A stretch of 64,000 nucleotides of DNA from an uncultured Verrucomicrobiota bacterium (GTDB lineage: Bacteria; Verrucomicrobiota; Verrucomicrobiia; Palsa-1439), in assembly GCA_903847335.1 (NCBI GenBank), contig CAINDI010000143.1:9946-73945 (forward strand), given 5' to 3'. Shown here piece by piece: positions 26,424 to 46,804 of the stretch. Under the pieces are notes generated by a model. It made no database searches, had not been told where the DNA came from, and saw only the letters and a list, made by a program, of their open reading frames with translations. A program made the position numbers and the translations under genes. The first letter of the stretch is position 1; each line of letters opens with the position of its first letter.

Positions 26424-26552
26424 GGTTTAATCTCCTTAAGATTGTTAGTGATTGGGCTGAATGGTAGCACAGGAACAACATTTCGCAAGTGGTCAACGCG
26501 AATGCATAGTTTCGGCTTTCCTCTGTCCACAGTCATCCGATATACTTCCGTC

Positions 26553-29202: not shown

Positions 29203-29279
<77 letters not shown>

Positions 29280-29288
29280 ACGTACGAC

Positions 29289-29322
29289 GGGCCTGAAAGC
29301 AATTTCAGGCCCGTTTGTTGTT
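29289..29322 (+). terminator. Rho-independent terminator downstream of the tRNA.
   Basis: A 10-bp GC-rich stem (GGGCCTGAAA / TTTCAGGCCC) with a GCAA loop, followed by GTTTGTTGTT. Confidence 0.6.
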
Positions 29323-29327
29323 GAGCT

Positions 29328-30383
29328 CTAACGCAGCCATTCGTCCCGGTGCGCCGCAACAAAGGAATCGTCATTGAGATGCGGATAAGCGGCGTAGACG
29401 CGGTCAATTTCTTCGTGTTGGCCGATGCCGAAGGTTTCCTGTGGATCCAGTGTCCAAACGCCGGTCAATAATCCTTGTCGGCGCAATACTTCATGAATGC
29501 CGACAATGCAGCCGGCAAAACCATTCGCGGCATCGAAAAAGGCGGAATTCGAATCGGTTACCTCGACACCGCGCTGTAGCAATTCTGCCGTCCGGTCGAG
29601 TTTCCCGACTGCCGCGTGGCAAGCTACAAGCAACTCCACGGCTCGTTGCGTCCAAACCGACCAGTGGCCAAGGAGTCCGCCCACGAAATGCCGTTCGACC
29701 GGCTGACCATCCCGGAGGAAGCGAAAGGGGGTAATCAAGTCCGCTACGATGTTGTCATCGTTGCCGGTAAAGAGTGCGATATCATCCCGGCCGCTTTCCA
29801 CTACGGCGCGGACGACATCCAATGTTTGGTAGCGGTTAAAGGCGGCAATTTTGATTGCCACGACATTTTCAATCTCGGCAAATTTTCGCCAGAAGGCGTA
29901 GGGCAAGAGTCGGCCACCGGTCGCCGGCTGGAGATAAAATCCAATCACCGGTAGAACATTCGCTACCGCACGGCAATGGGCAACCAATTCATCAACCGGT
30001 GCCTGCGGCAACGCTGCTAAGCTCAGTAATCCGGCGTGGTAGCCAAGTGTTCGCGCTACCTCTGCCTCGCGAATCGCTTGCGGCGTTAAACCGCACAGAC
30101 CGGCGATGCGAACCACCGGCCGGTTCGCGCGCTGCATTTCTTCTGCGGCCAATGCCAGTACTGGTTGGTATAGGTCAACTTTTGGATCTCGGATTGCGAA
30201 TTGCGTCGTATGAACCCCCACTGCTAGCCCACCGGCACCGGCGGCAAGGTAATAGCGGCTGAGTGCTCGCTGGCGATGTTCATCAAGCTGGCGTGCGGCA
30301 TTGAGCGCGAGTGGATGGGCGGGAATTACCAAGCCCCGTTGTAAGGCGGCACGAAAATCAAAACTTTCCATCGCGCACCTCAA
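29328..30383 (-). CDS. Dihydrodipicolinate synthase / N-acetylneuraminate lyase-family (class I aldolase, TIM barrel) protein.
   Basis: 351 aa. Contains the AIKIAAF...TGNDDNIV pattern, reminiscent of the Schiff-base lysine region of the DapA family. The specific function is not assignable. Confidence 0.45.
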   Translation of the reverse strand: MRCAMESFDFRAALQRGLVIPAHPLALNAARQLDEHRQRALSRYYLAAGAGGLAVGVHTTQFAIRDPKVDLYQPVLALAAEEMQRANRPVVRIAGLCGLTPQAIREAEVARTLGYHAGLLSLAALPQAPVDELVAHCRAVANVLPVIGFYLQPATGGRLLPYAFWRKFAEIENVVAIKIAAFNRYQTLDVVRAVVESGRDDIALFTGNDDNIVADLITPFRFLRDGQPVERHFVGGLLGHWSVWTQRAVELLVACHAAVGKLDRTAELLQRGVEVTDSNSAFFDAANGFAGCIVGIHEVLRRQGLLTGVWTLDPQETFGIGQHEEIDRVYAAYPHLNDDSFVAAHRDEWLR

Positions 30384-31383
30384 AGTGAGTTGGTTTGTTT
30401 AATGTGCTGCCACCGTGCTTTACCCATTCAGCCACCCAGGTAATTAGTTGACCAATATTTGCCGTCGGTGAACCGAAGAGTTGGTAGGCTTTCGTCGAAT
30501 TGCTAATCCACGCTGTGGACGCTTCTTGTCCAACCAGCACCGGTGCTTTTCCTAGCTGTCGCCCCAAACGAGTCGCAAGATCACGAAGCGATAGGATTTC
30601 ACGCCCGGTCACATTGATGATAAAGGGCGGACTGGCGGCATGAGCAAGACATTGAATTGCTTGAGCATTCGCATCTCGCTGCCAAATGATATTGGCGTGC
30701 CCCATGGTGACATCAATCGGCTCACCGCTCATAATCTTTTGCGCCAAATCAATTAACACGCCGTACCGGAGATCGATTGCATAGTTGAGACGGACTAACG
30801 CCACGCGCGTCCCGTTGCGCTTCGCAAAATGAGTAAAGATTCGCTCCCGGCCTACGCAGGAATTCGCATAGTCTCCCGGTGGACCGAGCAAATCTTCTTC
30901 GCGTGCGCCGTTACCGGTAATCGGTGCCAGCGGATAAACACACCCAGTCGAAAAAGCAACAATGCGGGAATTTGCATAACGCTCGGCTGTATGAGCCGGT
31001 ACTAATGTGTTCATTGCCCAGGTTAAATCGGGGCCTTGCGATGTGCCAAATTTTTGTCCGGCCATGAAGATTACATTGGGCGCGTCCGGTAGGTTGGCAA
31101 CGGCCGCACGATCAAGTAGGTTGGCAGTTACCGGTTCAATGCCGAACTTACGAAGGCTCTCGGCGGTGCTGGGTATTGAGAAGCGTGCAACGCCGTAAAC
31201 CGGATCAGACCGACCAAGGCTGTCCAGTGCCCGCCGCACCATTCGCGCGAGCGTCGGCCCCATTTTTCCGCCTACGCCGAGCACTGCAACCGCCCCCGGT
31301 AACGCACGCAACGTCTCCATGACACCGGGAGTCGGCTCGCTCAGAATTTGCTCTAATTGATCTTCGGTTTTAATCGTCAGCAT
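30358..31383 (-). CDS. NAD-dependent epimerase/dehydratase (extended SDR) family protein.
   Basis: 341 aa. N-terminal Rossmann motif VLGVGGKMG, and a YxxxK-type active-site region. Confidence 0.7.
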   Translation of the reverse strand: MLTIKTEDQLEQILSEPTPGVMETLRALPGAVAVLGVGGKMGPTLARMVRRALDSLGRSDPVYGVARFSIPSTAESLRKFGIEPVTANLLDRAAVANLPDAPNVIFMAGQKFGTSQGPDLTWAMNTLVPAHTAERYANSRIVAFSTGCVYPLAPITGNGAREEDLLGPPGDYANSCVGRERIFTHFAKRNGTRVALVRLNYAIDLRYGVLIDLAQKIMSGEPIDVTMGHANIIWQRDANAQAIQCLAHAASPPFIINVTGREILSLRDLATRLGRQLGKAPVLVGQEASTAWISNSTKAYQLFGSPTANIGQLITWVAEWVKHGGSTLNKPTHFEVRDGKF

Positions 31384-31563
31384 ATTTATTTTTAAATTCT
31401 GTGGAGCACAAAACTAAATCAACTAAACAAAAATATCGGCCATTATCAAGTAAAGATGGAGCTTTTTACAACCCACGTCACTGTAAGTTTGACCGGCATG
31501 AAGCGCTTGCCATTTTTGTTGCAAAAAGGCGATTGCTGACCGGTCGAAAAAATTGCTACGTTG

Positions 31564-32187
31564 ATGCCGATGAATATTTCATTAACCTTGGAGCTAGTCG
31601 CGGTCGGCGTTTGCGCTGTGACCGGTGTACTGGCGGCGGAAGGGAAACAGGTTGATCTTTTCGGCGTGCTTGTGTTGGCTGTTGTCACGGCGTTCGGCGG
31701 TGGCACTGTCCGGGATTTGTTACTCGGCGATGTGCCGGTCGCGTGGATGCGGAATCCGTATTATCTGCTGACGGCAATGTTGGCTGGACTGGGAACATTT
31801 ATCGTAGCGCGCTACCGGTCGTTGCCGCGGACGGTGTTGCTGGTGGCCGATGCGTTTGGTTTGGCCTTGTTCACATTGATTGGAACCAAGAAGGGACTCG
31901 CATTCGGCGTTACGGTGCCGGTGGGCGTAATGCTTGGAGTGATTACCGGCGTGGCCGGTGGCATTCTGCGTGATGTTTTAACTGGCACGATTCCGCTGGT
32001 CTTTCGTCCGAAGATTTACTTGTACGCGACAGCGGCTCTGTGCGGCGCGACGGTATATGTGTTGGTATTGCATTGGATGCCATCCGAGGTGGTCGCCGCC
32101 GGTAGTAGTCTCGCTACGACACTGGCGCTACGGCTTGCGGCTATCCGTTGGAAGCTGGAATTGCCGCTGTTTCATGTTCGCCGTTGA
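31564..32187 (+). CDS. UPF0126 / TRIC-family membrane protein (YadS-like putative glycine transporter or cation channel).
   Basis: Two tandem repeats, each with the GGGxxRD signature (FGGGTVRD, AGGILRD), and 7 TM helices. Confidence 0.75.
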   Translation: MPMNISLTLELVAVGVCAVTGVLAAEGKQVDLFGVLVLAVVTAFGGGTVRDLLLGDVPVAWMRNPYYLLTAMLAGLGTFIVARYRSLPRTVLLVADAFGLALFTLIGTKKGLAFGVTVPVGVMLGVITGVAGGILRDVLTGTIPLVFRPKIYLYATAALCGATVYVLVLHWMPSEVVAAGSSLATTLALRLAAIRWKLELPLFHVRR

Positions 32188-32320
32188 GATGCTGCCGGTT
32201 AAAATCCCGGTATTTCGGACTAAAGTAAGCGAGGTAGTGGAGACCTTGTAAGAATAAAGGTTTGTGCGATGTTGGCGAGTATTTTCATGCTCTTAATTAT
32301 AAACTAAGGAACAATTTTCA

Positions 32321-33079
32321 ATGAAAATAACGCCGGCACAGTTGGACTTTTATGAACGGAATGGTTTCCTAGTCGTTGAAGACCTGATCTCAACGAAAAA
32401 CCTAGAGATTTTAAGCCGAAGAATTGACGAGATCCAGCAGGGGGTACTCCAAGCACAGGAGTCTGCGAAAGGTGGACAACCTGTAGGTTTTTTAATTGAA
32501 AAACAGAGTGACGGCTTAGCCGTGACAGCGAAACCCGCGGTGCGAAAACTTACCAATCTCGCATTCGTGGATGATTTTTTTAAGTCGATTGCCGCCAGTC
32601 CAAATATTCTAGACATTGTCTCACAACTCACCGGTGGTGGAACCGAGCTTATGCTTTACAGTGATCAGGCATTTCTAAAACCCGCTTTTTGTGGTTCAGC
32701 CAAACCTCTCCACCAAGATAATTCCTATTTTAAAGTCACGCCGAATTCTGCAGGAGTTACCTGTTGGCTAGCGATTGATAATGCAACCGTAGAAAATGGC
32801 TGTTTGAATTACATCCCCGGCACACACAAGCTTGGGCTAGTGAAGCATAAGGCTACTGATGACCCGGCACATCTAGTTCCAGATGTTGACTTCAAACTTG
32901 GAGTGGAAATACCACTGCCTATTCCGGCTGGTTCTTGTCTTTTTCATCACCTACTGGTCATGCATAGCTCTAAGGTTAACAGTAGCCCAAAGTCACGGCG
33001 GGCCTGGGCGCTGCATTATGCGAATCGCACTGCAGAAAAATCCGTTAAATCATGGGAGAATATGCTCAAGCTACGGTAG
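32321..33079 (+). CDS. Phytanoyl-CoA dioxygenase (PhyH) family Fe(II)/2-oxoglutarate-dependent dioxygenase.
   Basis: 252 aa. N-terminal YERNGFLVVEDLI. H-x-D in PLHQDNSYF, with a distal His in IPGTHK. Sits in a locally low-GC segment. Confidence 0.75.
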   Translation: MKITPAQLDFYERNGFLVVEDLISTKNLEILSRRIDEIQQGVLQAQESAKGGQPVGFLIEKQSDGLAVTAKPAVRKLTNLAFVDDFFKSIAASPNILDIVSQLTGGGTELMLYSDQAFLKPAFCGSAKPLHQDNSYFKVTPNSAGVTCWLAIDNATVENGCLNYIPGTHKLGLVKHKATDDPAHLVPDVDFKLGVEIPLPIPAGSCLFHHLLVMHSSKVNSSPKSRRAWALHYANRTAEKSVKSWENMLKLR

Positions 33080-33098
33080 TCTTCCGAGTAGAAAATAA

Positions 33099-34135
<1,037 letters not shown>

Positions 34136-34237
34136 ACGAGCCGAAACGATTGCTGCTCAAGTATACATATGCTATTTTCTGGAGCGCAATTCCAACTGTT
34201 GAACATTTGAAACAGATCGGCGCTTAGTCTTTCGTTT

Positions 34238-35347
34238 ATGAACCAAATTATCGAACTGCTTTCCCGGCTTGTTGCTTGTCCGAGCATCAACCCGAAGAAT
34301 CTTGCGCCCACCGGTCTGCTCTATGGTGAAGCCGGTATGGTTGAGCTTCTCGCCAATCTTTTGCGCGATTGGGGTGGTCAAATTCAAATTAACGAAATTG
34401 CGCCGGGGCGTCCCAATCTACTTGCCTGTTTCCCCGGCAAAAATCCAAACCGGTCACTACTGCTCGACGCGCACACCGATGTCGTGGCGGTGGAGGGGAT
34501 GATCATTCCGCCATTCACACCAATGATTCGCGACGGGAAACTCTACGGGCGCGGTGCATGTGATACCAAAGGGCCAATGGTTGCCATACTTCTCGGTCTG
34601 CGCCGCGTTCTCGACGAACAGGGCCAGCCACCGGTGACAATCTGGTTTGCGGGGACTTGCAATGAAGAGCTTGGAGCCACCGGTGCCGCAGCACTGATGG
34701 CATCCGGTTTCCGGGCTGACATGGCCATTATCGCTGAGCCGACCGAACTGAAAATTATTCACGCCCACAAAGGGGCACTGCGCGCAATCTTGGAAACAAC
34801 CGGTATTGCTGCGCACAGCTCCACACCACAACTCGGTGTCAACGCAATCTACAAAATGCTGCCGGTTATCACTCGACTGGAAAAAATGATTTTCCCGGCC
34901 ACACATCCAAAACTCGGCGCACCGACATTAAGCGTCGGCACCATTGCCGGTGGATCACAAGTCAATATTGTGCCGGCGAGTTGTCGAATTGACGTGGATC
35001 GTCGGCTGCTGCCCGGTGAGACGCGTGAAGAAATCGTTCACCAACTTACCGGTAACGAAGATGTAATGTGCACAGTCACGGAATTTTATCCGCCACTTGA
35101 AGAGTCACTCGATAGTCCGGTGGCTGGCTTAGTAGCGGCGGCGTGTCGCCGTGTATTAGGTCGTGCCGAATTTAGTGCCGCACCCTATGCGACCAATGCG
35201 GGGGCTTACAAAGCGGCCGGCATTCCAGCCGTTGTTTTTGGTCCCGGTAGCATTGCTCAAGCCCACACGAAAGATGAGTTTATCGAGCTTTCAGCAGTGG
35301 CGCAGGCGGTGAATCTTTTCGCGGAAATTATCCAGAATGCAACTTAA
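34238..35347 (+). CDS. M20-family metallopeptidase (ArgE/DapE-type N-acyl-amino acid deacylase).
   Basis: 369 aa. Contains LDAHTDVV, GRGACDTKG, and the catalytic NEE (in GTCNEELGATG). Confidence 0.75.
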   Translation: MNQIIELLSRLVACPSINPKNLAPTGLLYGEAGMVELLANLLRDWGGQIQINEIAPGRPNLLACFPGKNPNRSLLLDAHTDVVAVEGMIIPPFTPMIRDGKLYGRGACDTKGPMVAILLGLRRVLDEQGQPPVTIWFAGTCNEELGATGAAALMASGFRADMAIIAEPTELKIIHAHKGALRAILETTGIAAHSSTPQLGVNAIYKMLPVITRLEKMIFPATHPKLGAPTLSVGTIAGGSQVNIVPASCRIDVDRRLLPGETREEIVHQLTGNEDVMCTVTEFYPPLEESLDSPVAGLVAAACRRVLGRAEFSAAPYATNAGAYKAAGIPAVVFGPGSIAQAHTKDEFIELSAVAQAVNLFAEIIQNAT

Positions 35348-35363
35348 GGAAACGAAATTAGCC

Positions 35364-36416
35364 ATGATGATACCATCCGTCCAAAAACTACGCATCGGTG
35401 TGACCGGTCTCGGTCGCATCGGTTGGGAACACGCCCAGCAACTGGCTAGCCACACTGATTTTACTCTGGCCGCAGTGGCGGATCCGGTGGCCGACCGGCG
35501 CGCCGAAGCGATTACGAAATTTGATTGTGTTGCCATGGCGACCCATGAGGAATTACTGCGTACCACTGGATTGGATGCAGTGGTGATTGCCACGCCGACC
35601 CATCTTCACAAAGCAATGGCAATTGCAGCCTTCAAAGCTGACCAGCATGTCTTTCTCGAGAAACCCATGGCTGTGACTATTGCCGAAGCCCGTGCGATTG
35701 CGCAGGCAGCTCAACGTGCTCATCGAGTTTTGACTGTCTACCAACCCCACCGGTTAACGGCCTATCATCAGCAAGTTCGTCACATCATTGCCACCGGTAA
35801 GCTGGGGCAGATTTATCACGTCAAACGCGGCGCGTTTGGTTGGGTGCGGCGGAATGATTGGCAGACGTTGCAAAAGTTTGGCGGTGGCATGCTGAATAAT
35901 TACGGCGCGCATTACCTCGATCAATTACTGGATCTGACTGGCCATGATCTCAATCGGATTTTTTGCCGGTTGGGAAGGGTGGCCTCACTGGGCGATACCG
36001 AAGATGTCGTGAAGGTTATTTATCAAACACGCTCTGGCATCCTCGGTGAAGTGGAAATCAATCAAGCTACGCCGCGTGGATTTTTTGAGTTGGAAGTTTA
36101 CGGTACACATGGCGTGTTGTGGAAAGAAGCGAATACACTAAAGCTCCGGTATTTTCGGGCTGAAGAATTACCGGCGCGGATATTGGATTCAACTCTTGCG
36201 ACTCCCGGTCGGGAATATCCACGTGACAACGCGAAGTTTTATGACGAGATCGTCGTTGTTGATGAACAGTACGCCGTGGATGTTTATGCGGATTTTGCTC
36301 AGGCAATTCGCATCGGTAGCGAGCCGTTTGTGAAGCCCGCCGAAACGCTCGCTGTGATGCAGTTGCTCGCCCGCTGCCGGAAGCAATCCGGTTCCATCAT
36401 CGCCACGCCAATCTGA
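35364..36416 (+). CDS. Gfo/Idh/MocA-family NAD(P)-dependent oxidoreductase.
   Basis: N-terminal Rossmann motif IGVTGLGRIGWEHA. An EKP motif (FLEKPMA). The C-terminus has an alpha/beta dimerisation domain. Confidence 0.8.
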   Translation: MMIPSVQKLRIGVTGLGRIGWEHAQQLASHTDFTLAAVADPVADRRAEAITKFDCVAMATHEELLRTTGLDAVVIATPTHLHKAMAIAAFKADQHVFLEKPMAVTIAEARAIAQAAQRAHRVLTVYQPHRLTAYHQQVRHIIATGKLGQIYHVKRGAFGWVRRNDWQTLQKFGGGMLNNYGAHYLDQLLDLTGHDLNRIFCRLGRVASLGDTEDVVKVIYQTRSGILGEVEINQATPRGFFELEVYGTHGVLWKEANTLKLRYFRAEELPARILDSTLATPGREYPRDNAKFYDEIVVVDEQYAVDVYADFAQAIRIGSEPFVKPAETLAVMQLLARCRKQSGSIIATPI

Positions 36417-36436
36417 GCAATTCTGATTGACAACCG

Positions 36437-37660: not shown

Positions 37661-37674
37661 CCTCTGGAACTGAA

Positions 37675-38562
37675 TTAGATCTCTTCTTCTTTTCCGCTGA
37701 CCAATGAGTGTTGTGCGGCTTCAAGCATGGCCATGATTTCAAGTGTGTCTTCCATTGCCACCGGCGCCGGAACACCCTGAAAGAAATTGGTAATTTTTTC
37801 CAATAGATCCGAATACATTCGATCGGTATCTACTACAAACGGCGCGGCTTGCTCGGTGCTTCGCAAGCATCCACCGTAAATCCAAACATTTTGGTTTAAC
37901 TCTACAATCCCTCGGCGACCACCGGCGTAACTGATAATTGCAATCAGCCCGGCGTCATCTTGCCGAACAAAAACTCGTTGGGCACCGCGTCCCATTGCGC
38001 GTTGCAGCATCTCAAAGGTGTGGACGCCATACCAGATGATGGAACTACCGGTGGGTGCTAGTCCCAATGGACCGTAAACTGTGGTGCATGATGGACTTGG
38101 TATTATTTGGCAAGCGGTTTCAAGTTGAGGAACAAAACGTAATGCGGATGCCGAAAAGGTTTTTAAGTTCCAGGCATTGATGAGTGCAGAAATCTTCCGA
38201 CCATTCGCCAATGTGTCGGCGAGTGGTTTATCGAGGAATACATTCTTACCTAAGTCAACACACCGGGAGAAATATTCCAAGTGATACGCCGGGTCGTTAA
38301 TCGCCAGTAGCAACGCATCGCAACCCGTGACCGCTTCGGTAAAATCAGTGGTAACTTTTACACCCCACGCTTCCAATTGTTGCTGGCGGGCATTCAAACC
38401 AGACTCACTTTGAAATGGAGTAGTAAAACGCAAGCAAGAAACCGCCTGCAAATGCTGAACTTTTTGCTCCGGTGGACACTCGGGAGCTTGCATCCGTTTC
38501 ACAAACTCAATGGTGTGACTGCTATCTAAACCGATGATTGCGACGCGAATCGTTTTGTGCAT
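37675..38562 (-). CDS. Gfo/Idh/MocA-like oxidoreductase with an N-terminal NAD-binding Rossmann domain.
   Basis: IRVAIIGLDSSHTIEF is an N-terminal dinucleotide-binding motif. The start is taken at M5 (MHKT). Confidence 0.55.
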   Translation of the reverse strand: MHKTIRVAIIGLDSSHTIEFVKRMQAPECPPEQKVQHLQAVSCLRFTTPFQSESGLNARQQQLEAWGVKVTTDFTEAVTGCDALLLAINDPAYHLEYFSRCVDLGKNVFLDKPLADTLANGRKISALINAWNLKTFSASALRFVPQLETACQIIPSPSCTTVYGPLGLAPTGSSIIWYGVHTFEMLQRAMGRGAQRVFVRQDDAGLIAIISYAGGRRGIVELNQNVWIYGGCLRSTEQAAPFVVDTDRMYSDLLEKITNFFQGVPAPVAMEDTLEIMAMLEAAQHSLVSGKEEEI

Positions 38563-39245
38563 TCGACTTTCCAATTAATGGTTTCTTCAAAAAACTGTAT
38601 GGCCATTGCACGCGACTGGCCTTCCTCGTGGCCGGTATTAGGTTCTACGACTAATTTCCACACTGCACCGGCGGATTGGTTGACGGTAAAAATGTTCCGA
38701 ATATTTGTAATCCGAAACTCGGCGTCATTGGCTCCGATGAAGAAAATTCCAGGTACTTGGCGCGCGGCTGCCGATGCGAGTTGGGTAAAGTAATAGCCGC
38801 CTTTATTCACAACAAATGCCAGCACGCGCTCCGGTTGCCAGCAGGTAAACTCGTAGTTGAACTGACCGCCTGCGGAATGTCCCCACAGCAAAAGTGGTGC
38901 CGTCGCGACTTCCAGATGTTGGGATTGTTCGGAAAATTGCCGTAAGGCTTCGAGTAATGCCGCGCCGCTGCCGGCGCTCGCCCGGCAATATTCTTCGATG
39001 TTCATGTTCTCGTGCGGATGATCTTTAAAATAACAGCCGACGAGTGCGAATTGATGTCGGTGGGCAAAATCCTGCCAGAAAATTTCTGTGACCATTGTCC
39101 GTCCGTCGCCGTTGGAGCCCGGCATCAATACCAGTACGCCGCGACATCTATCCGTTTTAGCCGGTAACCAAAATCGGAAATCTGCTACGGCGTAGTTCTG
39201 ACTGGCCGGTAAGACGACATTCAACTCGGGGGTTTTCATTTCCAA
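38526..39245 (-). CDS. Alpha/beta-hydrolase fold esterase.
   Basis: 239 aa. The nucleophile elbow is GHSAGG, with a downstream His near the C-terminus (NTGHEEG). Confidence 0.65.
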   Translation of the reverse strand: MEMKTPELNVVLPASQNYAVADFRFWLPAKTDRCRGVLVLMPGSNGDGRTMVTEIFWQDFAHRHQFALVGCYFKDHPHENMNIEEYCRASAGSGAALLEALRQFSEQSQHLEVATAPLLLWGHSAGGQFNYEFTCWQPERVLAFVVNKGGYYFTQLASAAARQVPGIFFIGANDAEFRITNIRNIFTVNQSAGAVWKLVVEPNTGHEEGQSRAMAIQFFEETINWKVECTKRFASQSSV

Positions 39246-40216
39246 TGCGGCGCGGTTGACCAGAGAAAGCGTTCCAGCCGTTCGTCAAGTTGCCGGCGTT
39301 CTGCGGCGGCCTCCGGATAATCGGCGTGGCCGGCAGTGAGGATAAACATTTCTTTGGGTCCCGACAAAGCATTGAGCACCGCAAATTGTCCGGGCGGCGG
39401 CACCACGGCATCGGTGAGAGCCGGTGCCACAAAAACCGGAATGCGAATGCGGCGCGCAGCCGTGGCGGCGTCAAAATAAGGTAGAACTTTGCGAACCTCC
39501 GGATGTGTTTGCGCGTATTGCCGGACGATTTCGCCTCTGCCGATACCGGCGATACTTAATCGCAACGGATGATGGCCAAACGTCGGCACTTCCAGATAGG
39601 CGCGTTGATACAGCGGTTCCCACGGCAAAGCCATTGCACCCAATCCACCGCCGAAACTACAACCGTAATAAACAATATTTTCCGCCACTGCCGGTACCAA
39701 CTGCGCCAGCGCTTGAGCGCCCGACCATAACGCAGTCACGCAATGCCGTAAAATATAGGTCTCACGCTGTGCGATGCCATGGAGCACATGCTGGTCTGCC
39801 GTGTCGGGAATTTCTGGTGCGGCGGAAAGGCTGAAACCGGGCGCGTTGACAAAAAGAGTCGCCATGGAACGCTGTGGGAATTCCGGTTCCGTCCGCGCGC
39901 CATATCCGTGACCAATGACAGCCCCGAGTTTGACCGGCTGCGAACGCGGTAGGACGAGCCATGCGCCGACGCGAACACCATCCAAGGTTTTAAAATAAAT
40001 CTCAAACAACCGGTGTTCCGGACTTGGCGATAGCAATTCAGTTTGCGTCAACTCCAGAGGTTGGGCGGCGAATTCCCGACGGGTTGCCTGCCAAAAATTG
40101 TCGAAGTCTACTGGCTCGGATGGAGGTTCAATTTTTAGCAATTCATCAAGTTTAGGAGATGGCACGCTCATAACACTTGCAGATTTAGTCATGGCTCGGC
40201 GTGGTTGCAAGCTCAA
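39236..40216 (-). CDS. Acetyl xylan esterase / cephalosporin-C deacetylase family (CE7, AXE1).
   Basis: 326 aa. N-terminal AXE1 region (DFDNFWQATRREF), the GCSFGGGL nucleophile elbow, and a C-terminal His. The start is uncertain; 40192 or 40171 are internal ATG candidates. Confidence 0.75.
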   Translation of the reverse strand: MSLQPRRAMTKSASVMSVPSPKLDELLKIEPPSEPVDFDNFWQATRREFAAQPLELTQTELLSPSPEHRLFEIYFKTLDGVRVGAWLVLPRSQPVKLGAVIGHGYGARTEPEFPQRSMATLFVNAPGFSLSAAPEIPDTADQHVLHGIAQRETYILRHCVTALWSGAQALAQLVPAVAENIVYYGCSFGGGLGAMALPWEPLYQRAYLEVPTFGHHPLRLSIAGIGRGEIVRQYAQTHPEVRKVLPYFDAATAARRIRIPVFVAPALTDAVVPPPGQFAVLNALSGPKEMFILTAGHADYPEAAAERRQLDERLERFLWSTAPHWK

Positions 40217-43111
40217 TCAAACTCCACACTTGAATTGGGAGCTAATGCCGTTAATCTGCTGGCAGACCAATTTACCAACGTGACCACTCCTGATAACTGG
40301 TTAAAGAATTTCGCCGTACCGGCGACCGACAATCGTCCAATGCCACTCTGGGTTTGGAATGGCGAGGTGAGCGAGGCGCGCATCACTGTCATGCTGGAGC
40401 AAATTGCTGCGCAACATTGCGGTGGCGTTTTTATCCATCCCCGGCCCGGACTCATCACTGAATATCTTTCCGAACGCTGGTTTGAATTGTGGGCCTTTGC
40501 GCTCCGAGAATGCGAACGACTTGGTTTGGAATGTCACATCTACGATGAGAATTCTTTTCCGTCCGGTTTTGCCGGCGGCCATGTGCCGGCTACCGACCCC
40601 AACACCGTTGCGGAGACGATGACCGGCGTTGCCGATGGTCAGTTTGTCCTCAAGAAAGCACCACCGGATCCATTTCATGCCGGCTTCGGTTACGTCGATC
40701 TCGCTCGTCCGGGAACGACAGAATTATTTCTTCAAACCACTCACGCGCAGTATGTCCGCCGCTTTCAAAGTGAATTCGGGAAGCGAATCAAATACGCATT
40801 TACCGATGAACCGGAGCTTTACAGCCGCGATGGTCTCGCGTGGTCGGCACATTTGGCGCAAGAATTTCAGCGCGAACACGGTTACGCACTTACGGACCGG
40901 CTAACTGCATTTGCCGGTACCGACGAATCAGCGTGCGCCGTCCGATTTGATTATTTCTCGACGGCGCAAAGATTGTTCACTGAAAATTTTCTCCAACCGA
41001 TGCACGATTGGTGCGCCGCCCACGAACTCGCATTCACCGGTCACTTCAACGAACACGTCTGGCCGGTGCCGTGCGATGTACCGGACATCATGGCGGCATT
41101 ACGCTGGATGCATGTTCCCGGTAACGACCTACTCGGTTTTCAATTCACACCAACCAACCGCGTGGCTAACGGTGTGCGTCTGTTGAATCTCACTGAGCTT
41201 CGCAGCGTCGCTAACCAACTCGGTCGCGACCGAGTGCTTTGCGAAACCACCGGTGGTGGCGGCTACGGATTTGCGCTCGCCGATGCCAAAGCGCTTGAAG
41301 ATTTTGCCCTCGCCAACGGCGTCAATTTTATTAATCCACACCTCAGTTACGAAACGCTCGCCGGCGCGCGCAAATACGATTGGCCACAAACATTCAGCGA
41401 TCACAGCCCGTGGTGGGATGCCTACCGGTTGAATGCCGACCACACCGCGCGTGTTGTTCACGCTCTCCGGCAAGGCCGCGAACAGAACCGGATTCTCGTG
41501 CTGCAACCCACCACGACCGCGTGGATTCATTACCGTCCACCGTCGTTTAAGTCCGACAAAAAACTCGATCCGGTCATCGCCCAACTCCGCCAATCGCAAA
41601 TCGAATTGGTGCTGGCATTGCACGGTGAACATTTTGATTTTGATCTCGGCGACGAACTAATCATGGCCGAACTTGGCGCGGCGGAAGCCGGTCAGCTGCG
41701 TGTTGGCGAGCGCAATTACGATGTCGTGGTGATACCGGTAGGAATGGAAAACCTGCTCGACAGCACAGCGGCATTGCTACAGCAATTCAAAGAAGCCGGT
41801 GGAAAAATTTTGGTTGCCGGCGAATTGCCGACATTTATGCGCGGTCGAAAGCTTGCCGACACAACGCCGTTCGCCAGTTGGGAACGCTGTGGTTCGACGG
41901 AAAAACTTTTGACGCGACTCCGGCAACTTGTTCCGCCGCGATTTACTGCGCCGGCCGACTGGTGCGTGATGCGGAAGGAATTGCCCGCCGGTGATATTTT
42001 GTATTTCATCGCGAATCCGTGGGACCAAGCGCAACGCGCCACCATTCAGCTCGAAGGTCGCAACGCCGTACTCCTCGACACCGCGACCGGCACGATGTCG
42101 GCGCTAGAAAATTTCGAGTTAGATTTACCGGCTCGCGGACACGCGTTGGTGTTGATGTCACCGGTGGCTGCTCCGGTGAAAGTTCAACCAAAATGGCGCG
42201 GCGCGGAAGTTGGGCCGGTTAGCGTCGAACGGGCGGACGTGAATGTTCTCGCCCTCGACTACTGCGACTTCGGCGTCGAAAAAAGTTTGCCGACGATTGC
42301 GGCGGATTTGAAAAATTGGCAGGCGAATGGTTTTCCGCGTAATATGTGGAGCGTCAGCACTCAGTACAAACAGACAATTCTGGATGCGCCAATCGCTACC
42401 GGTAGCGGTTTCACGGTGCGCTACCGGTTTCATACACTGCAAATGTCGCTGGAATTAGCAGTGGAACGGCCATGGCTGTACCGGATTACCCTGAACGGAA
42501 AACTAGTTTCGTTTGAAGGAGCAAGCCGGTGGTTTGATGAAGACATTCGGCGCGTCAATATCTCTGGCCTTGTCGTCGCTGGCGAAAACATCATCGAGCT
42601 GACGGCGCAGAAGTTCAACGTGCTCTGCGAGATTATGCCGGTTTATCTTTTGGGAAATTTTTCGGTCACGCCGGGGAGTATTGGATTTGTTCTCGAGCCG
42701 GCGCGGCCGCTCGCCTTGGGTGATTGGGTAGGGCAGGGACTACCATTTTATCCGTGGGGTGTGCGGTACCGGATGTCGATTGGTTTGACACAACCAGCCC
42801 GGCAAATCGCGGTGGAATTACCGGAATGGGCCGGCTCTGTTGCGCACATTTATTGGAATGGTACATCGCGTGGTGCTATCGCATTTCCGCCTTACCGGCT
42901 CGAATGGACAGAAGATGTGCCGGTGGGCGAACACGAATTGGTCGTTGAGGTTCGCGGCAATCTTAAAAATTTACTTGGCCCACATTTCAGCGATGGTTTA
43001 CCGGGACCGTGGAGTTGGCAGGCCGCCCCGCAACCGCAACCGGCGGGTAGCCAGTATAAATTTTCGCCAACCGGTCTCCAGAAACCGCCGCGCTGTTGGT
43101 TCGCCTCTTAA
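40205..43111 (+). CDS. Large cytoplasmic glycoside hydrolase with an N-terminal (beta/alpha)8 barrel and C-terminal beta-sandwich domains. Tentatively GH106-like (alpha-L-rhamnosidase-type). Paralog of 52239..55346.
   Basis: 968 aa with no signal peptide. The N-terminal block is PLWVWNGEV...GGVFIHPRPGL...YDENSFPSGFAGG. The C-terminal region (LLGNFSV...GDWVGQGLPFYPWGVRY) is shared with the paralog. The true start may be internal, around 40340. Confidence 0.55.
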   Translation: MQAQSNSTLELGANAVNLLADQFTNVTTPDNWLKNFAVPATDNRPMPLWVWNGEVSEARITVMLEQIAAQHCGGVFIHPRPGLITEYLSERWFELWAFALRECERLGLECHIYDENSFPSGFAGGHVPATDPNTVAETMTGVADGQFVLKKAPPDPFHAGFGYVDLARPGTTELFLQTTHAQYVRRFQSEFGKRIKYAFTDEPELYSRDGLAWSAHLAQEFQREHGYALTDRLTAFAGTDESACAVRFDYFSTAQRLFTENFLQPMHDWCAAHELAFTGHFNEHVWPVPCDVPDIMAALRWMHVPGNDLLGFQFTPTNRVANGVRLLNLTELRSVANQLGRDRVLCETTGGGGYGFALADAKALEDFALANGVNFINPHLSYETLAGARKYDWPQTFSDHSPWWDAYRLNADHTARVVHALRQGREQNRILVLQPTTTAWIHYRPPSFKSDKKLDPVIAQLRQSQIELVLALHGEHFDFDLGDELIMAELGAAEAGQLRVGERNYDVVVIPVGMENLLDSTAALLQQFKEAGGKILVAGELPTFMRGRKLADTTPFASWERCGSTEKLLTRLRQLVPPRFTAPADWCVMRKELPAGDILYFIANPWDQAQRATIQLEGRNAVLLDTATGTMSALENFELDLPARGHALVLMSPVAAPVKVQPKWRGAEVGPVSVERADVNVLALDYCDFGVEKSLPTIAADLKNWQANGFPRNMWSVSTQYKQTILDAPIATGSGFTVRYRFHTLQMSLELAVERPWLYRITLNGKLVSFEGASRWFDEDIRRVNISGLVVAGENIIELTAQKFNVLCEIMPVYLLGNFSVTPGSIGFVLEPARPLALGDWVGQGLPFYPWGVRYRMSIGLTQPARQIAVELPEWAGSVAHIYWNGTSRGAIAFPPYRLEWTEDVPVGEHELVVEVRGNLKNLLGPHFSDGLPGPWSWQAAPQPQPAGSQYKFSPTGLQKPPRCWFAS

Positions 43112-45903
43112 TCGCCGAGACCCAAAAAGGAATGACCGGGCGCAGCTTCGAGGAGAAAGTGCACGGTACCGGCTTCTTTGTTGGAGAGATGGGTTTTCAA
43201 GATACCGTGTTCGGTTTCCAGAGTGGTAACTTGGTTTGTAAGTGGATCGCCGTTAAAATTCAGTGGTGTCAAATGCCAGATTTTGGCACCGGTCTTCAAA
43301 GTGAAGTCGGCGGTGACCGGCTCCATCAGGATTGGTGAGTCCCCTTGTTTGTCGAGCCGGTATCGATCACCGCGTTTGCCGTATTGCTGACCGGTATTGC
43401 GGGTGCGCCCGACGAGAGCGATGTGAATGCTGTGCGACTTATTCACCGGTCGATGGTCGAGACTGGAGAAATGTACGACGCCGTAGGCATCGTTCAAAGT
43501 CGCGGTCAAGCCACCATCCTGGAAGGTTTGATTGGAGAGGAAACCCATCACGCCTTGGGTTTTCGGCGTGTTGATGCGAATAAAACCTTGGTCGTAATTC
43601 CAGATTAATTCACCGGTACTGCTGGTGATGGTTTTAGCTTTTTCATCATGGCACTTCCGGTAGGTTTTTTCATCCCAGACAGCCGGATATTTCTTCGGAT
43701 CAAACGATAATTCGACCCGGCCAATGAACGCCGCCTCCGGTGGGCAAGGAGTGCCACCGAATAGCATGGCGAACTGAGTATCAGATTCCCGGCTTTGCAG
43801 AGTGCGCTTGCGGAGTGGATTGTGCAGTGCGGTTTCATCGAGTGCGTTGCGATAAATAAGCGGTGCAGGTTTGACGTCGCCACGAACATAGAGGTAATGC
43901 GCCAACGGTTCGCAGGCCATTTGCGCTGGATTGTCAAACATTCCGAAAATCGAGTTCAGGAAACCAGCGGAGTCAACATCGTCCACTACGAAATGATGAT
44001 TCGCCGATAAATTTTGAAGCGCACCGTAGGCCGCCATGAATGGGCCGGCTTCGACGGTGTAGTCGTTGGGCCATGGGAATTGCCATTCGGTGCAGGTGAA
44101 TGGTTTGCCGGCGGGTTGCTGGTAAATGAACATGAAGAAATTATCCTTAGGAGATTTTTCAATCGGTAAATTTTCAAAGGTCACGGCGTTGGGCACCCAG
44201 CCGCCGAGCGGATGCAGCCAATAGCTATGTTTACCGGCGAAGTCGAAATTCGCATTGGCGGCTGTCTGGATTTCTTGGAGATAATTCGGACCGCCCCACG
44301 ATGAACCTTGCAACAATGTCCGGCTACCGGTGCTCCGGAGGACATCACGCACTTTGCTGAACCAGTTCACTTCGAGTTCGTAGTAAAATTTAGTCTGATC
44401 GGCGGCGCGATTAACTTCAGCGGGACGGATGTTGGCGAGATTACCAATATTGCGGAGCGCGATGGTTTCCTTGCTCAAGCTTTCGGTGATGAGGTCGAGT
44501 GGGCTGGTCTCATTCGCTACACGCCAAGCAGTCTGTAGTCCGCTATCGTCGCCGTATTTCTTTTTCAGCCAAGCATTCCATAATTCTTGGAGCTTGAGCC
44601 GGTAGCTACTCGGAATGGCATCGGTCGGATAAAAGAACAAGCTACATTCATTGACGACTTTGAACATGTTGAAGGCGGGTTCTTCTGCGTAAGTCCGGCC
44701 AGTATAAGGATTTTTATGTGCCAGAAATTCCCGGAGAAAAGTGAGATACAATTCCTGGTGGCGTTCATCATAAAAATACTGGGTATTGTTTAACCCCGAG
44801 ATTTTATCCGCCTGCTTCACACCGGCGGCTTCAGTCCACAGATGGCTGAAGAGCATGGACGCTTTGATACTGATACCAGCTTTCTGTAGTTCGTTAACGA
44901 AGTAGTCAAATTTATCGAGTCGTTTGAGGTCGAGTTTGTGCGGGTCGGTGCGGTCGCTTTGGAATGTGTCCATCAAGGAGTGGAACCGGACTTGATTGAA
45001 GCCAAACTTGGTGAGCCGGCGGATATAATGTTGTGCGAGCGATTTCGGCGGAAAGAGACTCGCGCCACCGAGGACAACGCCTTGGAAGCGGACGGCTTGG
45101 TCATCGTCAAAGAGCAACCGCTCGCCGTCGGCGTGCAGCCAGCCGGTGCGCGATTTGACAAAACCTTTTTCCCACGCGGCAACGGTGTCTTTATCGTAGT
45201 TGAACTTCAGTGGAAACCAATTCTCTACTCCGGCAGCAACTGGCTTCCAAGTCAGTTGGCCTTGCACCAGTTCCTCCTCCGGTTTATCGCCAAAACTCAC
45301 GCCTAAAACCGCGAGCGATCCACCGGTAAACGTTGATTTGAAAGTTAGACTCGTTACCGCTTTGTTCGGTTGTGTCAGCTTTAGCGGAATCAGATAAACG
45401 CCAATGGTTGCGCCTTGGCCGTTTTGGCCATGCCACGCGACAGTTCCGCGCTCCAGTTCATGCGGCCCCCACCAACCACTGATTCGGTCACCCAAAGTCA
45501 ATGGAATGGATTGTGTTTCGCCACCTTCGTACTGGATATCCACCGTCACCACCACGCCATCACCGCCCCACACATAGGTGGCGAGCAGATAAAGAAATTT
45601 TCCTTTTATCTTTGATACCGTGAGTTTCACTGTCTCCGGTAACGCGGGTAAATTTTTACCGCCGAGCATCAACGCCGCCGGGCCGTTCTCAATAATTGCA
45701 AACGGCACGCCTTTGAAAGTTTGCTGCCCGCGTGGAAATCCCGATAAGCAATTATCTTTGCCTTGACCGGTCCAGCCGGCGCGTTCTACTGAGTCGGTCA
45801 ACTCCCGGTTGGCAACTGAATTCAGTGGTACTGTCACAAATTCGGCGCGAACCACGTTGGTGGTGAGTATCAATAGACAGAAGAGGCGTGTAAAAACTTT
45901 CAT
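43108..45903 (-). CDS. Secreted multidomain glycoside hydrolase with a central clan GH-A (GH5-like) TIM barrel, plus N-terminal and C-terminal beta-rich accessory domains.
   Basis: 931 aa. Signal peptide MKVFTRLFCLLILTTNVVRA. The central region has FNQVRFHS and a VVNE acid/base-like motif. The family assignment is tentative. Confidence 0.5.
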   Translation of the reverse strand: MKVFTRLFCLLILTTNVVRAEFVTVPLNSVANRELTDSVERAGWTGQGKDNCLSGFPRGQQTFKGVPFAIIENGPAALMLGGKNLPALPETVKLTVSKIKGKFLYLLATYVWGGDGVVVTVDIQYEGGETQSIPLTLGDRISGWWGPHELERGTVAWHGQNGQGATIGVYLIPLKLTQPNKAVTSLTFKSTFTGGSLAVLGVSFGDKPEEELVQGQLTWKPVAAGVENWFPLKFNYDKDTVAAWEKGFVKSRTGWLHADGERLLFDDDQAVRFQGVVLGGASLFPPKSLAQHYIRRLTKFGFNQVRFHSLMDTFQSDRTDPHKLDLKRLDKFDYFVNELQKAGISIKASMLFSHLWTEAAGVKQADKISGLNNTQYFYDERHQELYLTFLREFLAHKNPYTGRTYAEEPAFNMFKVVNECSLFFYPTDAIPSSYRLKLQELWNAWLKKKYGDDSGLQTAWRVANETSPLDLITESLSKETIALRNIGNLANIRPAEVNRAADQTKFYYELEVNWFSKVRDVLRSTGSRTLLQGSSWGGPNYLQEIQTAANANFDFAGKHSYWLHPLGGWVPNAVTFENLPIEKSPKDNFFMFIYQQPAGKPFTCTEWQFPWPNDYTVEAGPFMAAYGALQNLSANHHFVVDDVDSAGFLNSIFGMFDNPAQMACEPLAHYLYVRGDVKPAPLIYRNALDETALHNPLRKRTLQSRESDTQFAMLFGGTPCPPEAAFIGRVELSFDPKKYPAVWDEKTYRKCHDEKAKTITSSTGELIWNYDQGFIRINTPKTQGVMGFLSNQTFQDGGLTATLNDAYGVVHFSSLDHRPVNKSHSIHIALVGRTRNTGQQYGKRGDRYRLDKQGDSPILMEPVTADFTLKTGAKIWHLTPLNFNGDPLTNQVTTLETEHGILKTHLSNKEAGTVHFLLEAAPGHSFLGLGD

Positions 45904-46061: not shown

Positions 46062-46718
46062 TTAATAATAACTTCCGCCGGCCTTGCCTGCTTCCGGTGC
46101 TTTAGCTTCCTCGCCTGGTTTGAGTGTGCCACGCGGTGTGAAGGGTTCCGTTGTTAGACAAAAAACATCAAGCAATCCCCAAGTCGGTGGATTAGCTCCG
46201 GTCTGATGTGCATTTGGTCCGGTGAACTGCACATCCATAATGTAGTTACCTTTTTTGAGATTCACTGCTTCCTGTTTGCTCCATTCAATTGTGCGGTATT
46301 GACCGATTGCAATGCGATCAACCACCGGTACTTCCCAGTCAATTTTCGTCCAGCCTTCTTCTGCACCAGGTGGTTTCACTGGTTTACCGGTGGCATCGAG
46401 TGCCACAAAGCGGATGCGCATTTCACCCATATTTGCACAGTAACCATGACGGAGATAGATAAAGTATGAGCCATCTTCTGAAATGGTTACTTTGTAAAGG
46501 AGGAAGGCCGGATTTGGTAAGCTTTCCCGGTTATCTGCTTGACCAGCAAAAGCATCGCCGGCGCTCAACAGTTTTGGATTATCGCCTTTTGCCCATGGGT
46601 TTTGCGGCATATTCGACTTGTAAGTAGTCTCGGCTTCGATCCAGACAAAGGCTGCTTGAACTGCGACCAGCGGCAAGAACATCGCCGCAATGACGGATGT
46701 GATAATGCGTATTTTCAT
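46062..46718 (-). CDS. Secreted hypothetical protein, with a possible beta-sandwich carbohydrate-binding-like fold.
   Basis: 218 aa. Signal peptide (MKIRIITSVIAAMFLPLVAVQA). The C-terminus is Gly/Lys/Ala-rich. Sits in lower-GC DNA. Confidence 0.4.
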   Translation of the reverse strand: MKIRIITSVIAAMFLPLVAVQAAFVWIEAETTYKSNMPQNPWAKGDNPKLLSAGDAFAGQADNRESLPNPAFLLYKVTISEDGSYFIYLRHGYCANMGEMRIRFVALDATGKPVKPPGAEEGWTKIDWEVPVVDRIAIGQYRTIEWSKQEAVNLKKGNYIMDVQFTGPNAHQTGANPPTWGLLDVFCLTTEPFTPRGTLKPGEEAKAPEAGKAGGSYY

Positions 46719-46804
46719 AGTGACGAAATTTTATTTACTTTTACCAGAGTGTCAAGCCTGTTTTTACCATTGAGTTGCAATCGCCTTGCAAGTTTGCCGC
46801 CACC

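Follow-up and report, generated by a model that had tools for sequence, protein, structure and literature searches.

A probable patchwork of small glycan-related gene units in an uncultured freshwater bacterium of the PVC type

Mannan loci such as that of Roseburia intestinalis combine a secreted mannanase with intracellular acetyl esterases and an alpha-galactosidase, and the known oxidative sugar routes combine Gfo/Idh/MocA glycoside 3-dehydrogenases with xylose-isomerase-like TIM-barrel enzymes. Here we analyze a group of sugar-active genes that resembles both systems in part and also contains an aldolase-like gene reminiscent of the nan clusters for sialic acid. The genes lie at 29.3-55.3 kb of a 64-kb stretch of DNA (64,000 nucleotides, hereafter the window) from an uncultured freshwater bacterium. 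A sequence-only reading of positions 29328-45903 had described one coherent catabolic region of ~16 kb, which would break down an acetylated or N-acylated sugar, possibly by sialic-acid or nonulosonate catabolism. Our analysis suggests a patchwork of small units with separate histories, which is neither one catabolic system nor a sialic-acid locus, and we estimate the probability of this reading at about 60%.

Gene calls and family assignments were obtained from an open reading frame (ORF) listing with Pfam and NCBIfam scans across the window, and the window-wide Pfam scan covered most ORFs of at least 180 aa, the likely coding set. All ten gene types named in the sequence-only reading are present at the family or superfamily level, and three genes had been skipped (UPF0126, PhyH, and a frameshifted aldo-keto reductase). 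The region is indeed rich in carbohydrate genes, but its extent was underestimated: the carbohydrate theme continues ~9 kb to the right of 45903, up to 55346, through the genes of h218 (a small secreted protein), a LacI-family regulator, a DUF1559 protein, h239 (a membrane-anchored protein), a glycoside hydrolase (GH) of family GH4, an NmrA-like short-chain dehydrogenase/reductase (SDR), and the glycosidase GH106b. The DUF1559/N-methyl proteins and the nearest named homologues, which are from metagenome-assembled genomes (MAGs) of Verrucomicrobiota, Victivallales, Kiritimatiellae, and Pirellulales, point to a host of the Planctomycetes-Verrucomicrobia-Chlamydiae (PVC) superphylum type.

Gene neighborhoods and transcription units

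We compared the neighborhoods of three genes in other genomes: GHA931, a secreted glycosidase (80 loci from GTDB and five contigs of closer relatives at 44-71% identity), UROD2, a TIM-barrel protein (80 metagenome loci around relatives, with the neighbors of orthologues counted in 78), and DHDPSl, an aldolase-like protein (six other contexts). The neighborhoods of the three share almost no other genes, which speaks against the coherent catabolic region proposed earlier, and none of the three sets showed operon-level synteny of the whole region across species. The sole recurring neighbors were h218 and a regulator with GHA931, Gfo/Idh/MocA genes (GFO and GFOs) with UROD2, although patchily, and SDRl with DHDPSl. 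The genes concerned are as follows.

43108-45903 (-): GHA931, secreted 931-aa retaining glycosidase of clan GH-A, GH5 beta-mannanase-like; no Pfam or NCBIfam match
46062-46718 (-): h218, secreted 218-aa partner protein; signal peptide, no Pfam or NCBIfam match
46805-47884 (+): LacI-family regulator with a Peripla_BP_3 sensor; PF13377 and PF00532, NCBIfam LacI-type full-length matches all below cut-off
35337-36416 (+): GFO1, Gfo/Idh/MocA NAD(P)-dependent sugar-type oxidoreductase; PF01408, PF22725, PF02894
36437/36464-37660 (+): UROD2, TIM-barrel protein of the uroporphyrinogen decarboxylase (URO-D)/MtaA fold; PF01208, 44 bits
37675-38574 (-): GFOs, short Gfo/Idh/MocA-like protein of ~295 aa; PF01408, 31 bits, YhhX-type PDB match
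30358-31383 (-): SDRl, atypical extended-SDR-like protein (NAD epimerase-like); PF01370, 28.7 bits
29328-30383 (-): DHDPSl, class I aldolase-like protein of the dihydrodipicolinate synthase/N-acetylneuraminate lyase (DHDPS/NAL) superfamily; PF00701, 30.7 bits against a cut-off of 22.1

The stretch at 29.3-55.3 kb is divided into at least seven divergent or convergent transcription units. A search for co-regulation motifs upstream of the divergent units had been suggested; our search for operator motifs and palindromes in all intergenic regions found none that is shared. One palindrome, TTGCAA-N5-TTGCAA (46775-46791), lies immediately before the LacI start. It occurs once in the window, its degenerate matches (two mismatches or fewer) are at chance level, and it was not apparent between the orthologous genes of contig L086. 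Promoter and terminator counts in the window are likewise at chance level, except for one promoter that matches 11 of 12 positions.

These observations bear on the possibility of a single co-regulated regulon for polysaccharide utilization. Its substrate would be one heteroglycan that carries acetyl groups and galactose and/or rhamnose side groups, for example an acetylated polymer resembling galacto(gluco)mannan or an exopolysaccharide from algae or cyanobacteria. In such a regulon, GHA931 would cut the backbone, cytoplasmic esterases, alpha-galactosidase, and rhamnosidases would remove the side groups, and the oxidoreductases would feed metabolism. The set of a secreted endo-type enzyme, esterases, alpha-galactosidase, and rhamnosidases is complementary in this sense, the block is intact in many assemblies of the species, and one GHA931 orthologue adjoins genes of the GH26 mannanase family. 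However, besides the h218/regulator cassette, no unit travels with GHA931, UROD2, or DHDPSl in other species, the seven or more units share no operator motif, no transporter is present, and mannans are not known to be decorated with rhamnose. We consider a single regulon unlikely. A mannan-only model was also rejected as a complete explanation, as the rhamnosidases do not fit it.

Window scans for sugar ABC transporters, major facilitator superfamily (MFS) transporters, and SusC/SusD (TonB-dependent receptor and SusD domains) gave no match, which agrees with the sequence-only reading that no SusC/SusD or obvious transporter is present. SusC/SusD are not expected here, because the genome is of the PVC type with DUF1559/N-methyl proteins. 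Proteins identical to those of the region are present in JGI metagenome contigs and in many ENA assemblies that carry the label BUCK21-1 and probably belong to the stratified-lake dataset of Buck et al. 2021 (PMC8121793), and the entire gene arrangement is common to near-identical strains only. Gene gain or loss between assemblies L001-L005 was considered and rejected, since the differences are 100-nt scaffold gaps.

The secreted glycosidase GHA931 and its small partner

A conserved set of neighbors surrounds GHA931, and three further features belong to this part of the window.

46728-46791 (strand not assigned): divergent control region between h218 and LacI, from a promoter scan and palindrome search
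47881-48678 (+): DUF1559/prepilin-type N-methyl pseudopilin-like protein; PF07963 and PF07596, GspG-like N-terminus
48678-49397 (+): h239, membrane-anchored protein with an N-terminal transmembrane segment; PF13407 at 24 bits, below the cut-off of 35.1

GHA931 folds into an N-terminal beta-sandwich, a (beta/alpha)8 barrel, and C-terminal beta-sandwiches. Its fold neighbors all belong to clan GH-A, the closest structures are GH5 beta-mannanases, and a GH5 mannanase match is found around the NE motif. An alignment of 33 sequences shows invariant R306, N418-E419, H559, Y561, and E606, and the AlphaFold2 (AF2) model places N418-E419 and E606 at the ends of strands 411-417 and 602-608. GHA931 thus has both hallmarks of a clan GH-A retaining enzyme, an acid/base Glu, in an Asn-Glu pair, that follows strand 4 and a nucleophile Glu that follows strand 7, and its earlier description as a secreted GH5-like enzyme is right at the level of fold and clan. 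Our best guess for its substrate is a glycan of the beta-mannan type, because its structural neighbors are GH5-mannanase-like and because its orthologue in L086 adjoins GH26 mannanase-family genes. At least 522 relatives are present in GTDB genomes, with the best GTDB match (44% identical) from a Victivallis sp.

Classical signal peptides were found in GHA931 and h218 only. In all seven contexts, a protein of ~215 aa of the h218 type is encoded immediately upstream of the GHA931-type gene in the same orientation. h218 is 46-55% identical across relatives, as conserved as GHA931, with invariant VWIEGE, NPWxKGDNPKLLS, and TEPFTPxG motifs. We tried the idea that h218 is a duplicate of the N-terminal domain of GHA931 and rejected it, as the two have no similarity; neither h218 nor the N- and C-terminal domains of GHA931 gave a match in relaxed Pfam scans. 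The 11/12 promoter lies in the divergent control region (46755-46728, minus strand); it is sigma-70-like, close to the consensus, and would serve h218.

A LacI- or GntR-type helix-turn-helix regulator with Peripla_BP_3 accompanies h218 and GHA931 wherever the flank is visible, and DUF1559-type genes are often near GHA931 orthologues. The other neighbors vary: two GH26 genes, a GH63-like gene, and GH99 in L086, GH2, SASA, and GH116 beside P0002, chaperone genes in L088, an MFS transporter in L177, and housekeeping genes in L176. Judged by gene order, the regulator, often DUF1559, h218, and GHA931 are shown to make up one self-contained, conserved cassette, which straddles 45903. The h218-GHA931 cassette could represent a not-yet-classified family of clan GH-A, and in this subgroup the secreted GHA931-type enzyme may depend on its co-secreted 20-kDa h218 partner. 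In the literature, DUF1559 was mentioned jointly with glycoside hydrolases in two genome papers only.

Several side observations concern the same genes. LacI, DUF1559, and h239 overlap by 4 and 1 nt and therefore look like one operon, and h239 has weak similarity to periplasmic sugar-binding folds. L176 has a similar regulator with a ~274-aa gene twice, a faint DUF1559 match being present at the second pair only, and a MazE/PIN toxin-antitoxin pair (L176 6344-6978) separates these regulator/DUF1559-like genes from the h218-GHA931-type pair.

The SDRl-DHDPSl pair and the URO-D-like set

DHDPSl belongs to the DHDPS/NAL superfamily: it scores above the Pfam gathering threshold, and its Schiff-base Lys (in VVAIKIAA) and Tyr (in FYLQP) align to the catalytic residues of DHDPS structures 3pb2 and 5ktl. 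The "DapA/NanA-family" label given earlier holds to this extent, but not for NanA, as no NanA/NAL model of NCBIfam matched at E<=0.01, and the sole match, at 19 bits, was 5-dehydro-4-deoxyglucarate dehydratase. SDRl and DHDPSl overlap by 26 nt and therefore form a two-gene operon. The SDRl family has an invariant GxGGxxG motif, and YxxxC replaces the usual YxxxK of SDR enzymes; the "SDR epimerase" is thus a PF01370 protein, but an atypical one, which is unrelated to NanE or AGE epimerases. A PDB sequence search with SDRl gave no match. SDRl and its relatives in L171, L172, and L174 also have an invariant C-terminal motif, NKPTHFEVRDG(K/R/Q)F.

DHDPSl has at least 8000 homologues, and the best 120 are 69-98% identical and come from Verrucomicrobiota, Prosthecobacter, Kiritimatiellae, and Pirellulales. 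SDRl precedes DHDPSl in the window and in three of the six other contexts (L171, L172, and L174). The remaining three, Prosthecobacter-like contigs L170, L173, and L175, carry DHDPSl without SDRl, facing a divergent GDSL/SGNH lipase-like gene; in these contigs, DHDPSl also adjoins a large Ser/Thr kinase-TPR gene. Other neighbors in the six contexts are unrelated and often housekeeping, and the pair itself was seen in contigs of Pirellulales, Kiritimatiellae, and other PVC bacteria. By these comparisons, SDRl and DHDPSl are shown to be a conserved PVC-wide unit (~70-80% identical), which merely adjoins the sugar genes, and the aldolase and epimerase should not be counted in a catabolic set as the sequence-only reading did. 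The conservation and contexts argue for an independent, possibly core, PVC function, and the SDR(YxxxC)/DHDPSl pair may be an unrecognised core pathway. In the Pirellulales MAG L171, an M20 gene 40% identical to that of the window precedes the pair. M20 was considered as a link between the SDRl-DHDPSl and UROD2 units and rejected, as this one locus and one M20-UROD2 adjacency (L144) are too thin.

The same evidence decides against catabolism of a sialic or other nonulosonic acid, or of an N-acylated sugar, by a NanA-like lyase, an epimerase, and deacetylases, which we regard as very improbable. As in nan clusters, the window has a DHDPS/NAL-superfamily enzyme with its Schiff-base Lys, here with the Tyr as well, and the M20 deacylase and the esterases are in the vicinity; DHDPSl also faces the GDSL/SGNH hydrolase in some Verrucomicrobia and follows M20 in one Pirellulales MAG. 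Unlike nan clusters, the window is without a NanA orthologue, NanE, NanK, NagA, NagB, NanT, and sialidase: Pfam scans of most ORFs of at least 180 aa in the 64 kb matched none of the domains of NanE, NanK, AGE epimerase, NagA, NagB, GH33 sialidase, or sialic-acid transporters. The aldolase-like gene is of a distinct PVC-wide family that lies in housekeeping contexts, and its partner is the atypical SDR. The sialic-acid reading is therefore largely refuted by the predicted family memberships.

Other genes lie to the right of the pair, among which are UROD2 and the two Gfo/Idh/MocA genes already listed.

31561-32187 (+): UPF0126 (Gly_transporter/TRIC-like) membrane protein; PF03458, 138.6 bits
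32321-33079 (+): PhyH-family Fe(II)/2-oxoglutarate dioxygenase; PF05721, 117.9 bits
33105-34136 (+): aldo-keto reductase with a frameshift near 33880-33950; PF00248, profile positions 2-227 of 291
34238-35347 (+): M20 deacylase of the ArgE/DapE family; TIGR01910, 229.3 bits against a cut-off of 217.6

UROD2 orthologues are 50-77% identical across PVC, Anaerolineae, and other bacteria. The AF2 model of UROD2 has a predicted local distance difference test score (pLDDT) of 93, and its Foldseek neighbors are URO-D and MtaA only, so the "URO-D-like" label stands. Profile searches match only MtaA 4ay7, the His-x-Cys...Cys zinc ligands of which are replaced by Tyr, Trp, and Ser, and NCBIfam MtaA/CmuA-type scores are 27-35 bits against cut-offs of 235-400. 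On these grounds, UROD2 is not assignable as a porphyrinogen decarboxylase or as a zinc methyltransferase, the latter because the MtaA zinc ligands are replaced. GFO1 is below every NCBIfam equivalog cut-off by a wide margin, with weak matches to inositol, glycoside 3-, and UDP-GlcNAc 3-dehydrogenase models, and M20 is below the cut-offs of all equivalog models (ArgE, DapE). The aldo-keto reductase continues in another frame to 34136 for its C-terminal ~70 aa; it is also split in at least one other assembly (281 and 71 aa), several scaffolds are gapped here, and the gene is either a pseudogene or an assembly error.

No window gene is consistently common to the 78 UROD2 loci. A Gfo/Idh/MocA gene is found within 6 kb of UROD2 in eight of them and directly after it in five of those eight, and a GFOs-like gene follows in five loci (L108, L117, L127, L141, and L142), always in the order UROD2-GFO-GFOs; the GFOs homologue in L127 is 56% identical to that of the window. 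Around these trios lie genes for AraC or LacI regulators together with GH31, GH42M-like, GH29, GH123-like, heparinase-like, and MFS genes. We infer that the UROD2/Gfo set converts a sugar or sugar derivative, because parts of the set recur near UROD2 orthologues in glycan operons elsewhere, although the association is patchy. Together, UROD2 and the two Gfo/Idh/MocA proteins could provide a new, cofactor-independent step in sugar conversion, in which an oxidised sugar would, for instance, be decarboxylated, isomerised, or subjected to elimination. PhyH is directly upstream of a UROD2-like gene in two loci (L118 and L119) and M20 in one (L144), a looser tie to the unit. In the window, six genes (TRIC, PhyH, aldo-keto reductase, M20, GFO1, and UROD2) run in the same direction at short spacing and may form a single transcript, with GFO1 and M20 overlapping by 11 nt; GFOs and the two esterase genes that follow are convergent to them. 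Literature searches gave nothing informative on URO-D-like genes, whether alongside Gfo/Idh/MocA genes or in papers on PVC carbohydrate-active enzymes.

A second URO-D-like gene lies at 20996-22177. It is 22% identical to UROD2 and adjoins an AraC-type regulator (22095-22946) and a PfkB sugar kinase (19898-20989), echoing the AraC-URO-D-like arrangement of L127.

Cytoplasmic enzymes, the proposed model, and known systems

The remaining genes of the region encode two large glycosidases, two esterases, a GH4 enzyme, and an NAD(P)-binding protein.

38526-39245 (-): ABH, alpha/beta-hydrolase, putative carboxylesterase of the LpqC/PHA-depolymerase type; GHSAGGQF elbow
39236-40216 (-): divergent, cytoplasmic CE7 (AXE1)-like acetyl esterase; PF05448, 94.5 bits
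40205/40340-43111 (+): GH106a, divergent Ram106B-type alpha-L-rhamnosidase homologue without a signal peptide; PF17132, 47.5 bits
49408-51249 (-): GH4 NAD+/Mn2+-type alpha-galactosidase (MelA-like); PF02056, PF11975
51352-52215 (+): NmrA/atypical-SDR NAD(P)-binding protein; PF13460, PF01370, PF05368, ending 23 nt before GH106b
52239-55346 (+): GH106b, cytoplasmic Ram106B-type alpha-L-rhamnosidase homologue; PF17132, 74.9 bits

GH106a is the "~970-aa cytoplasmic glycosidase" of the sequence-only reading and is 923-968 aa long, depending on the start. It and GH106b, both above the PF17132 gathering threshold of 29 bits, are paralogues with 27% identity over the full length, in a family of 6889 representative homologues. 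Compared with BT_0986, the Ram106B subgroup, of which thermophilic members have been characterised biochemically, keeps the general base, has Asp-Glu for Asp-Ser, and has His and Asp for E538 and E561 (Sci Rep 2019, PMC6828813). Using Tm_Ram106B residues 159-374, transcribed from the supplementary alignment of PMC6828813, as the BLASTP reference, GH106b is 42% identical (E 3e-46) and GH106a 30% identical (E 3e-23) to this core. The general-base Glu (E335 in Tm_Ram106B, E593 in BT_0986) corresponds to E302 of GH106a and E364 of GH106b, CETFG of Tm_Ram106B aligns to CETTG (GH106a) and TETYG (GH106b), and the FTDEP, FTGH, and PG(V/M/N)D motifs are kept. GH106a and GH106b are thus GH106 homologues of the Ram106B type, and they probably act as cytoplasmic exo-alpha-L-rhamnosidases. 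At 40193-40340, the longest CE7-like and GH106a ORFs overlap head-to-head (40205, 40216); later starts are called for both in other assemblies, which gives a divergent intergenic region of ~125-150 bp.

The esterases named earlier were found as described, both of them as distant members of their types. The ABH nucleophile elbow (GHSAGG) aligns weakly to 3d0k, with NCBIfam NF050058 at E 1.4e-4, below cut-off, and no Pfam match. The CE7-like protein matches TM0077/1vlq with E 1.6e-18; its Ser (GCSFG) and Asp (TDAVVPP) align, and the His lies beyond the printed alignment. CE7 enzymes carry the signature motifs RGQ and GxSQG. In the 1vlq alignment, neither was found in the CE7-like protein: the RGQ position is a gap/APGFS, and the nucleophile motif is GCSFG, not GGSQG. 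The acetylated half of the proposed substrate accords with these acetyl-esterase-type genes, but the N-acylated half has the M20 deacylase as its sole basis. GH4 is above the curated alpha-galactosidase cut-off (NCBIfam PRK15076, 555.3 bits against 486). It also has an extra C-terminal extension of ~180 aa (49408-49950), which has no domain match and gives sub-threshold hints of a PA14/GH2_N-type beta-sandwich.

Based on these assignments, we propose the following model. An oligosaccharide effector would cause the repressor to free the promoter in the divergent h218/LacI intergenic region, and secreted GHA931 and h218 would cut an extracellular beta-linked glycan, with a backbone of the beta-mannan type as the best guess. 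The oligosaccharides would be imported through a transporter encoded elsewhere and then trimmed by cytoplasmic exo-enzymes, namely GH106a, GH106b, GH4, the CE7-like esterase, and the LpqC-type esterase, the families and active sites of which are recognizable and the activities predicted. PhyH, the aldo-keto reductase, M20, GFO1, UROD2, and the convergent GFOs may, more weakly, provide an oxidoreductive or deacylating conversion of a released sugar or sugar derivative. SDRl and DHDPSl simply lie beside the rest.

Several points weigh against this model and the patchwork reading that frames it. GHA931 is 10-15% identical to solved GH5 enzymes with no PF00150 match, so its specificity is a guess, and the enzyme activities and substrates of the other genes are likewise predicted from their sequences. 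The rhamnosidases do not fit a mannan substrate, and the trimming enzymes may serve different glycans. PVC genomes scatter their glycoside hydrolase genes, which makes adjacency weak evidence, and Gfo/Idh/MocA genes are abundant in these genomes, so some chance adjacency is expected. The nearest UROD2 orthologues (72%) have a TPR-trypsin protease, MatE, and threonine synthase as neighbors instead of sugar genes. To complete the model, a transporter and a monosaccharide pathway would be needed, and the window has neither. Finally, the conservation of the whole block among strains of one species could reflect a young functional regulon.

Some of these points would also suit a set of independent, largely constitutive enzymes that are neighbors by chance in a PVC genome rich in glycoside hydrolases. 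Nearly all gene pairs are without synteny beyond the species level, the nearest UROD2 orthologues are in non-sugar contexts, and the flanks are housekeeping genes. However, 12 sugar-active or sugar-modifying genes and a LacI-type regulator lie within 26 kb, operons are indicated where genes overlap or lie very close together (M20/GFO1, CE7/ABH/GFOs, SDRl/DHDPSl, LacI/DUF1559/h239, and NmrA/GH106b), and the cassette of h218, GHA931, and the regulator is clearly a functional unit. We believe that such a complete lack of functional relation is quite improbable, and we retain the patchwork of small units as the preferred reading.

The flanks themselves are as follows. The right border of the sugar genes is the glycyl-tRNA synthetase gene, and the outer window encodes MreBC, PBP2, RodA, RNase G, RecJ, SecDF, TGT, and PhoH. 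On the left, the border is a tRNA gene, the only match of an Rfam scan for riboswitches and other RNAs.

29203-29279 (+): tRNA-Met (CAT); ARAGORN and Rfam, left border of the region

The tRNA is followed by a hairpin terminator at 29286-29315, with a perfect 10-bp stem (13 bp counting G-T pairs). Together they (29203-29315) lie between the rubrerythrin-VIT1 gene and DHDPSl and could mark a hot-spot for integration where the sugar genes begin on the left; no integrase was seen. Just left of the region, 26010-29152 encodes two unusual fusion proteins, one of 665 aa that joins an ATP-cone to a PRK/uridine-kinase-like domain, and a rubrerythrin-VIT1 (iron transporter) fusion.

As a whole, the region is ordinary: glycan degradation is known from PVC bacteria of anoxic lake water, and the region adds a further scattered set of glycan-trimming genes. 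The sialic-acid idea can be dropped, and for the two large glycosidases, annotation as GH106 rhamnosidase homologues of the Ram106B type is justified. GHA931 belongs to a broad GH5-like clan GH-A family without a Pfam model, with an obligate small secreted partner among its closer relatives, and the two are a good target for biochemistry and CAZy classification. Two conserved, abundant, uncharacterised PVC enzyme sets, UROD2 with its Gfo partners and the SDR(YxxxC)/DHDPSl pair, are modestly interesting leads. Tentatively, and with clearly less confidence than in the patchwork itself, we suggest a joint reading of the three novelties, in which the h218-GHA931 cassette is an unclassified GH-A family, the URO-D fold without zinc ligands and two Gfo proteins perform a new sugar-converting step, and the SDR/DHDPSl pair is perhaps a core pathway.

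Compared with known systems, the window resembles the Gram-positive mannan loci in having a secreted backbone cutter, cytoplasmic deacetylation and degalactosylation, and a LacI-type regulator. It differs from them in that an ABC transporter, GH130 phosphorylase, and mannose isomerase/epimerase are missing from the window, its esterases are CE7-like and LpqC-like instead of CE2/CE17, rhamnosidases are present, and the locus is not conserved as a unit. For the Gfo-based oxidation of glycosides, a parallel is found in L108, where the URO-D-like, GFO, and GFOs genes come after a xylose-isomerase-like TIM barrel, whereas the window has no xylose-isomerase-like gene and its TIM-barrel partner is of the URO-D fold. 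UROD2 shares the PF01208 TIM-barrel fold with MtaA/CmuA and uroporphyrinogen decarboxylase, and MtaA 4ay7 and URO-D are its sole sequence and structure neighbors. In contrast to MtaA/CmuA, it is without the zinc ligands, has no corrinoid protein nearby, and in several lineages accompanies Gfo/Idh/MocA genes in glycan operons.

GH106a and GH106b are similar to Ram106B of T. maritima (TM1074) and C. bescii (Cb_Ram106B) in their length (~920-1035 aa), their lack of a signal peptide, their 30-42% core identity, and the base Glu and FTDEP, FTGH, and PGxD motifs that separate Ram106B from BT_0986. They differ in scoring 50 and 80 bits against a cut-off of 1300 for the NCBIfam BT4145 rhamnosidase model and in having no rhamnose catabolic or transport genes alongside, and GH106a is divergent. 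The GH5 beta-mannanases and beta-mannosidases (CmMan5A 1uuq, BlMan5_7 8gf3, tomato 1rh9, and T. petrophila 3pz9/6tn6) are the closest structures to GHA931, from which it is set apart by its low identity and lack of a PF00150 match. In contrast to GH5 mannanases, GHA931 is a 931-aa protein with added N- and C-terminal beta-sandwiches, more like GH50 and GH42, and it is always paired with the secreted protein of ~215 aa.

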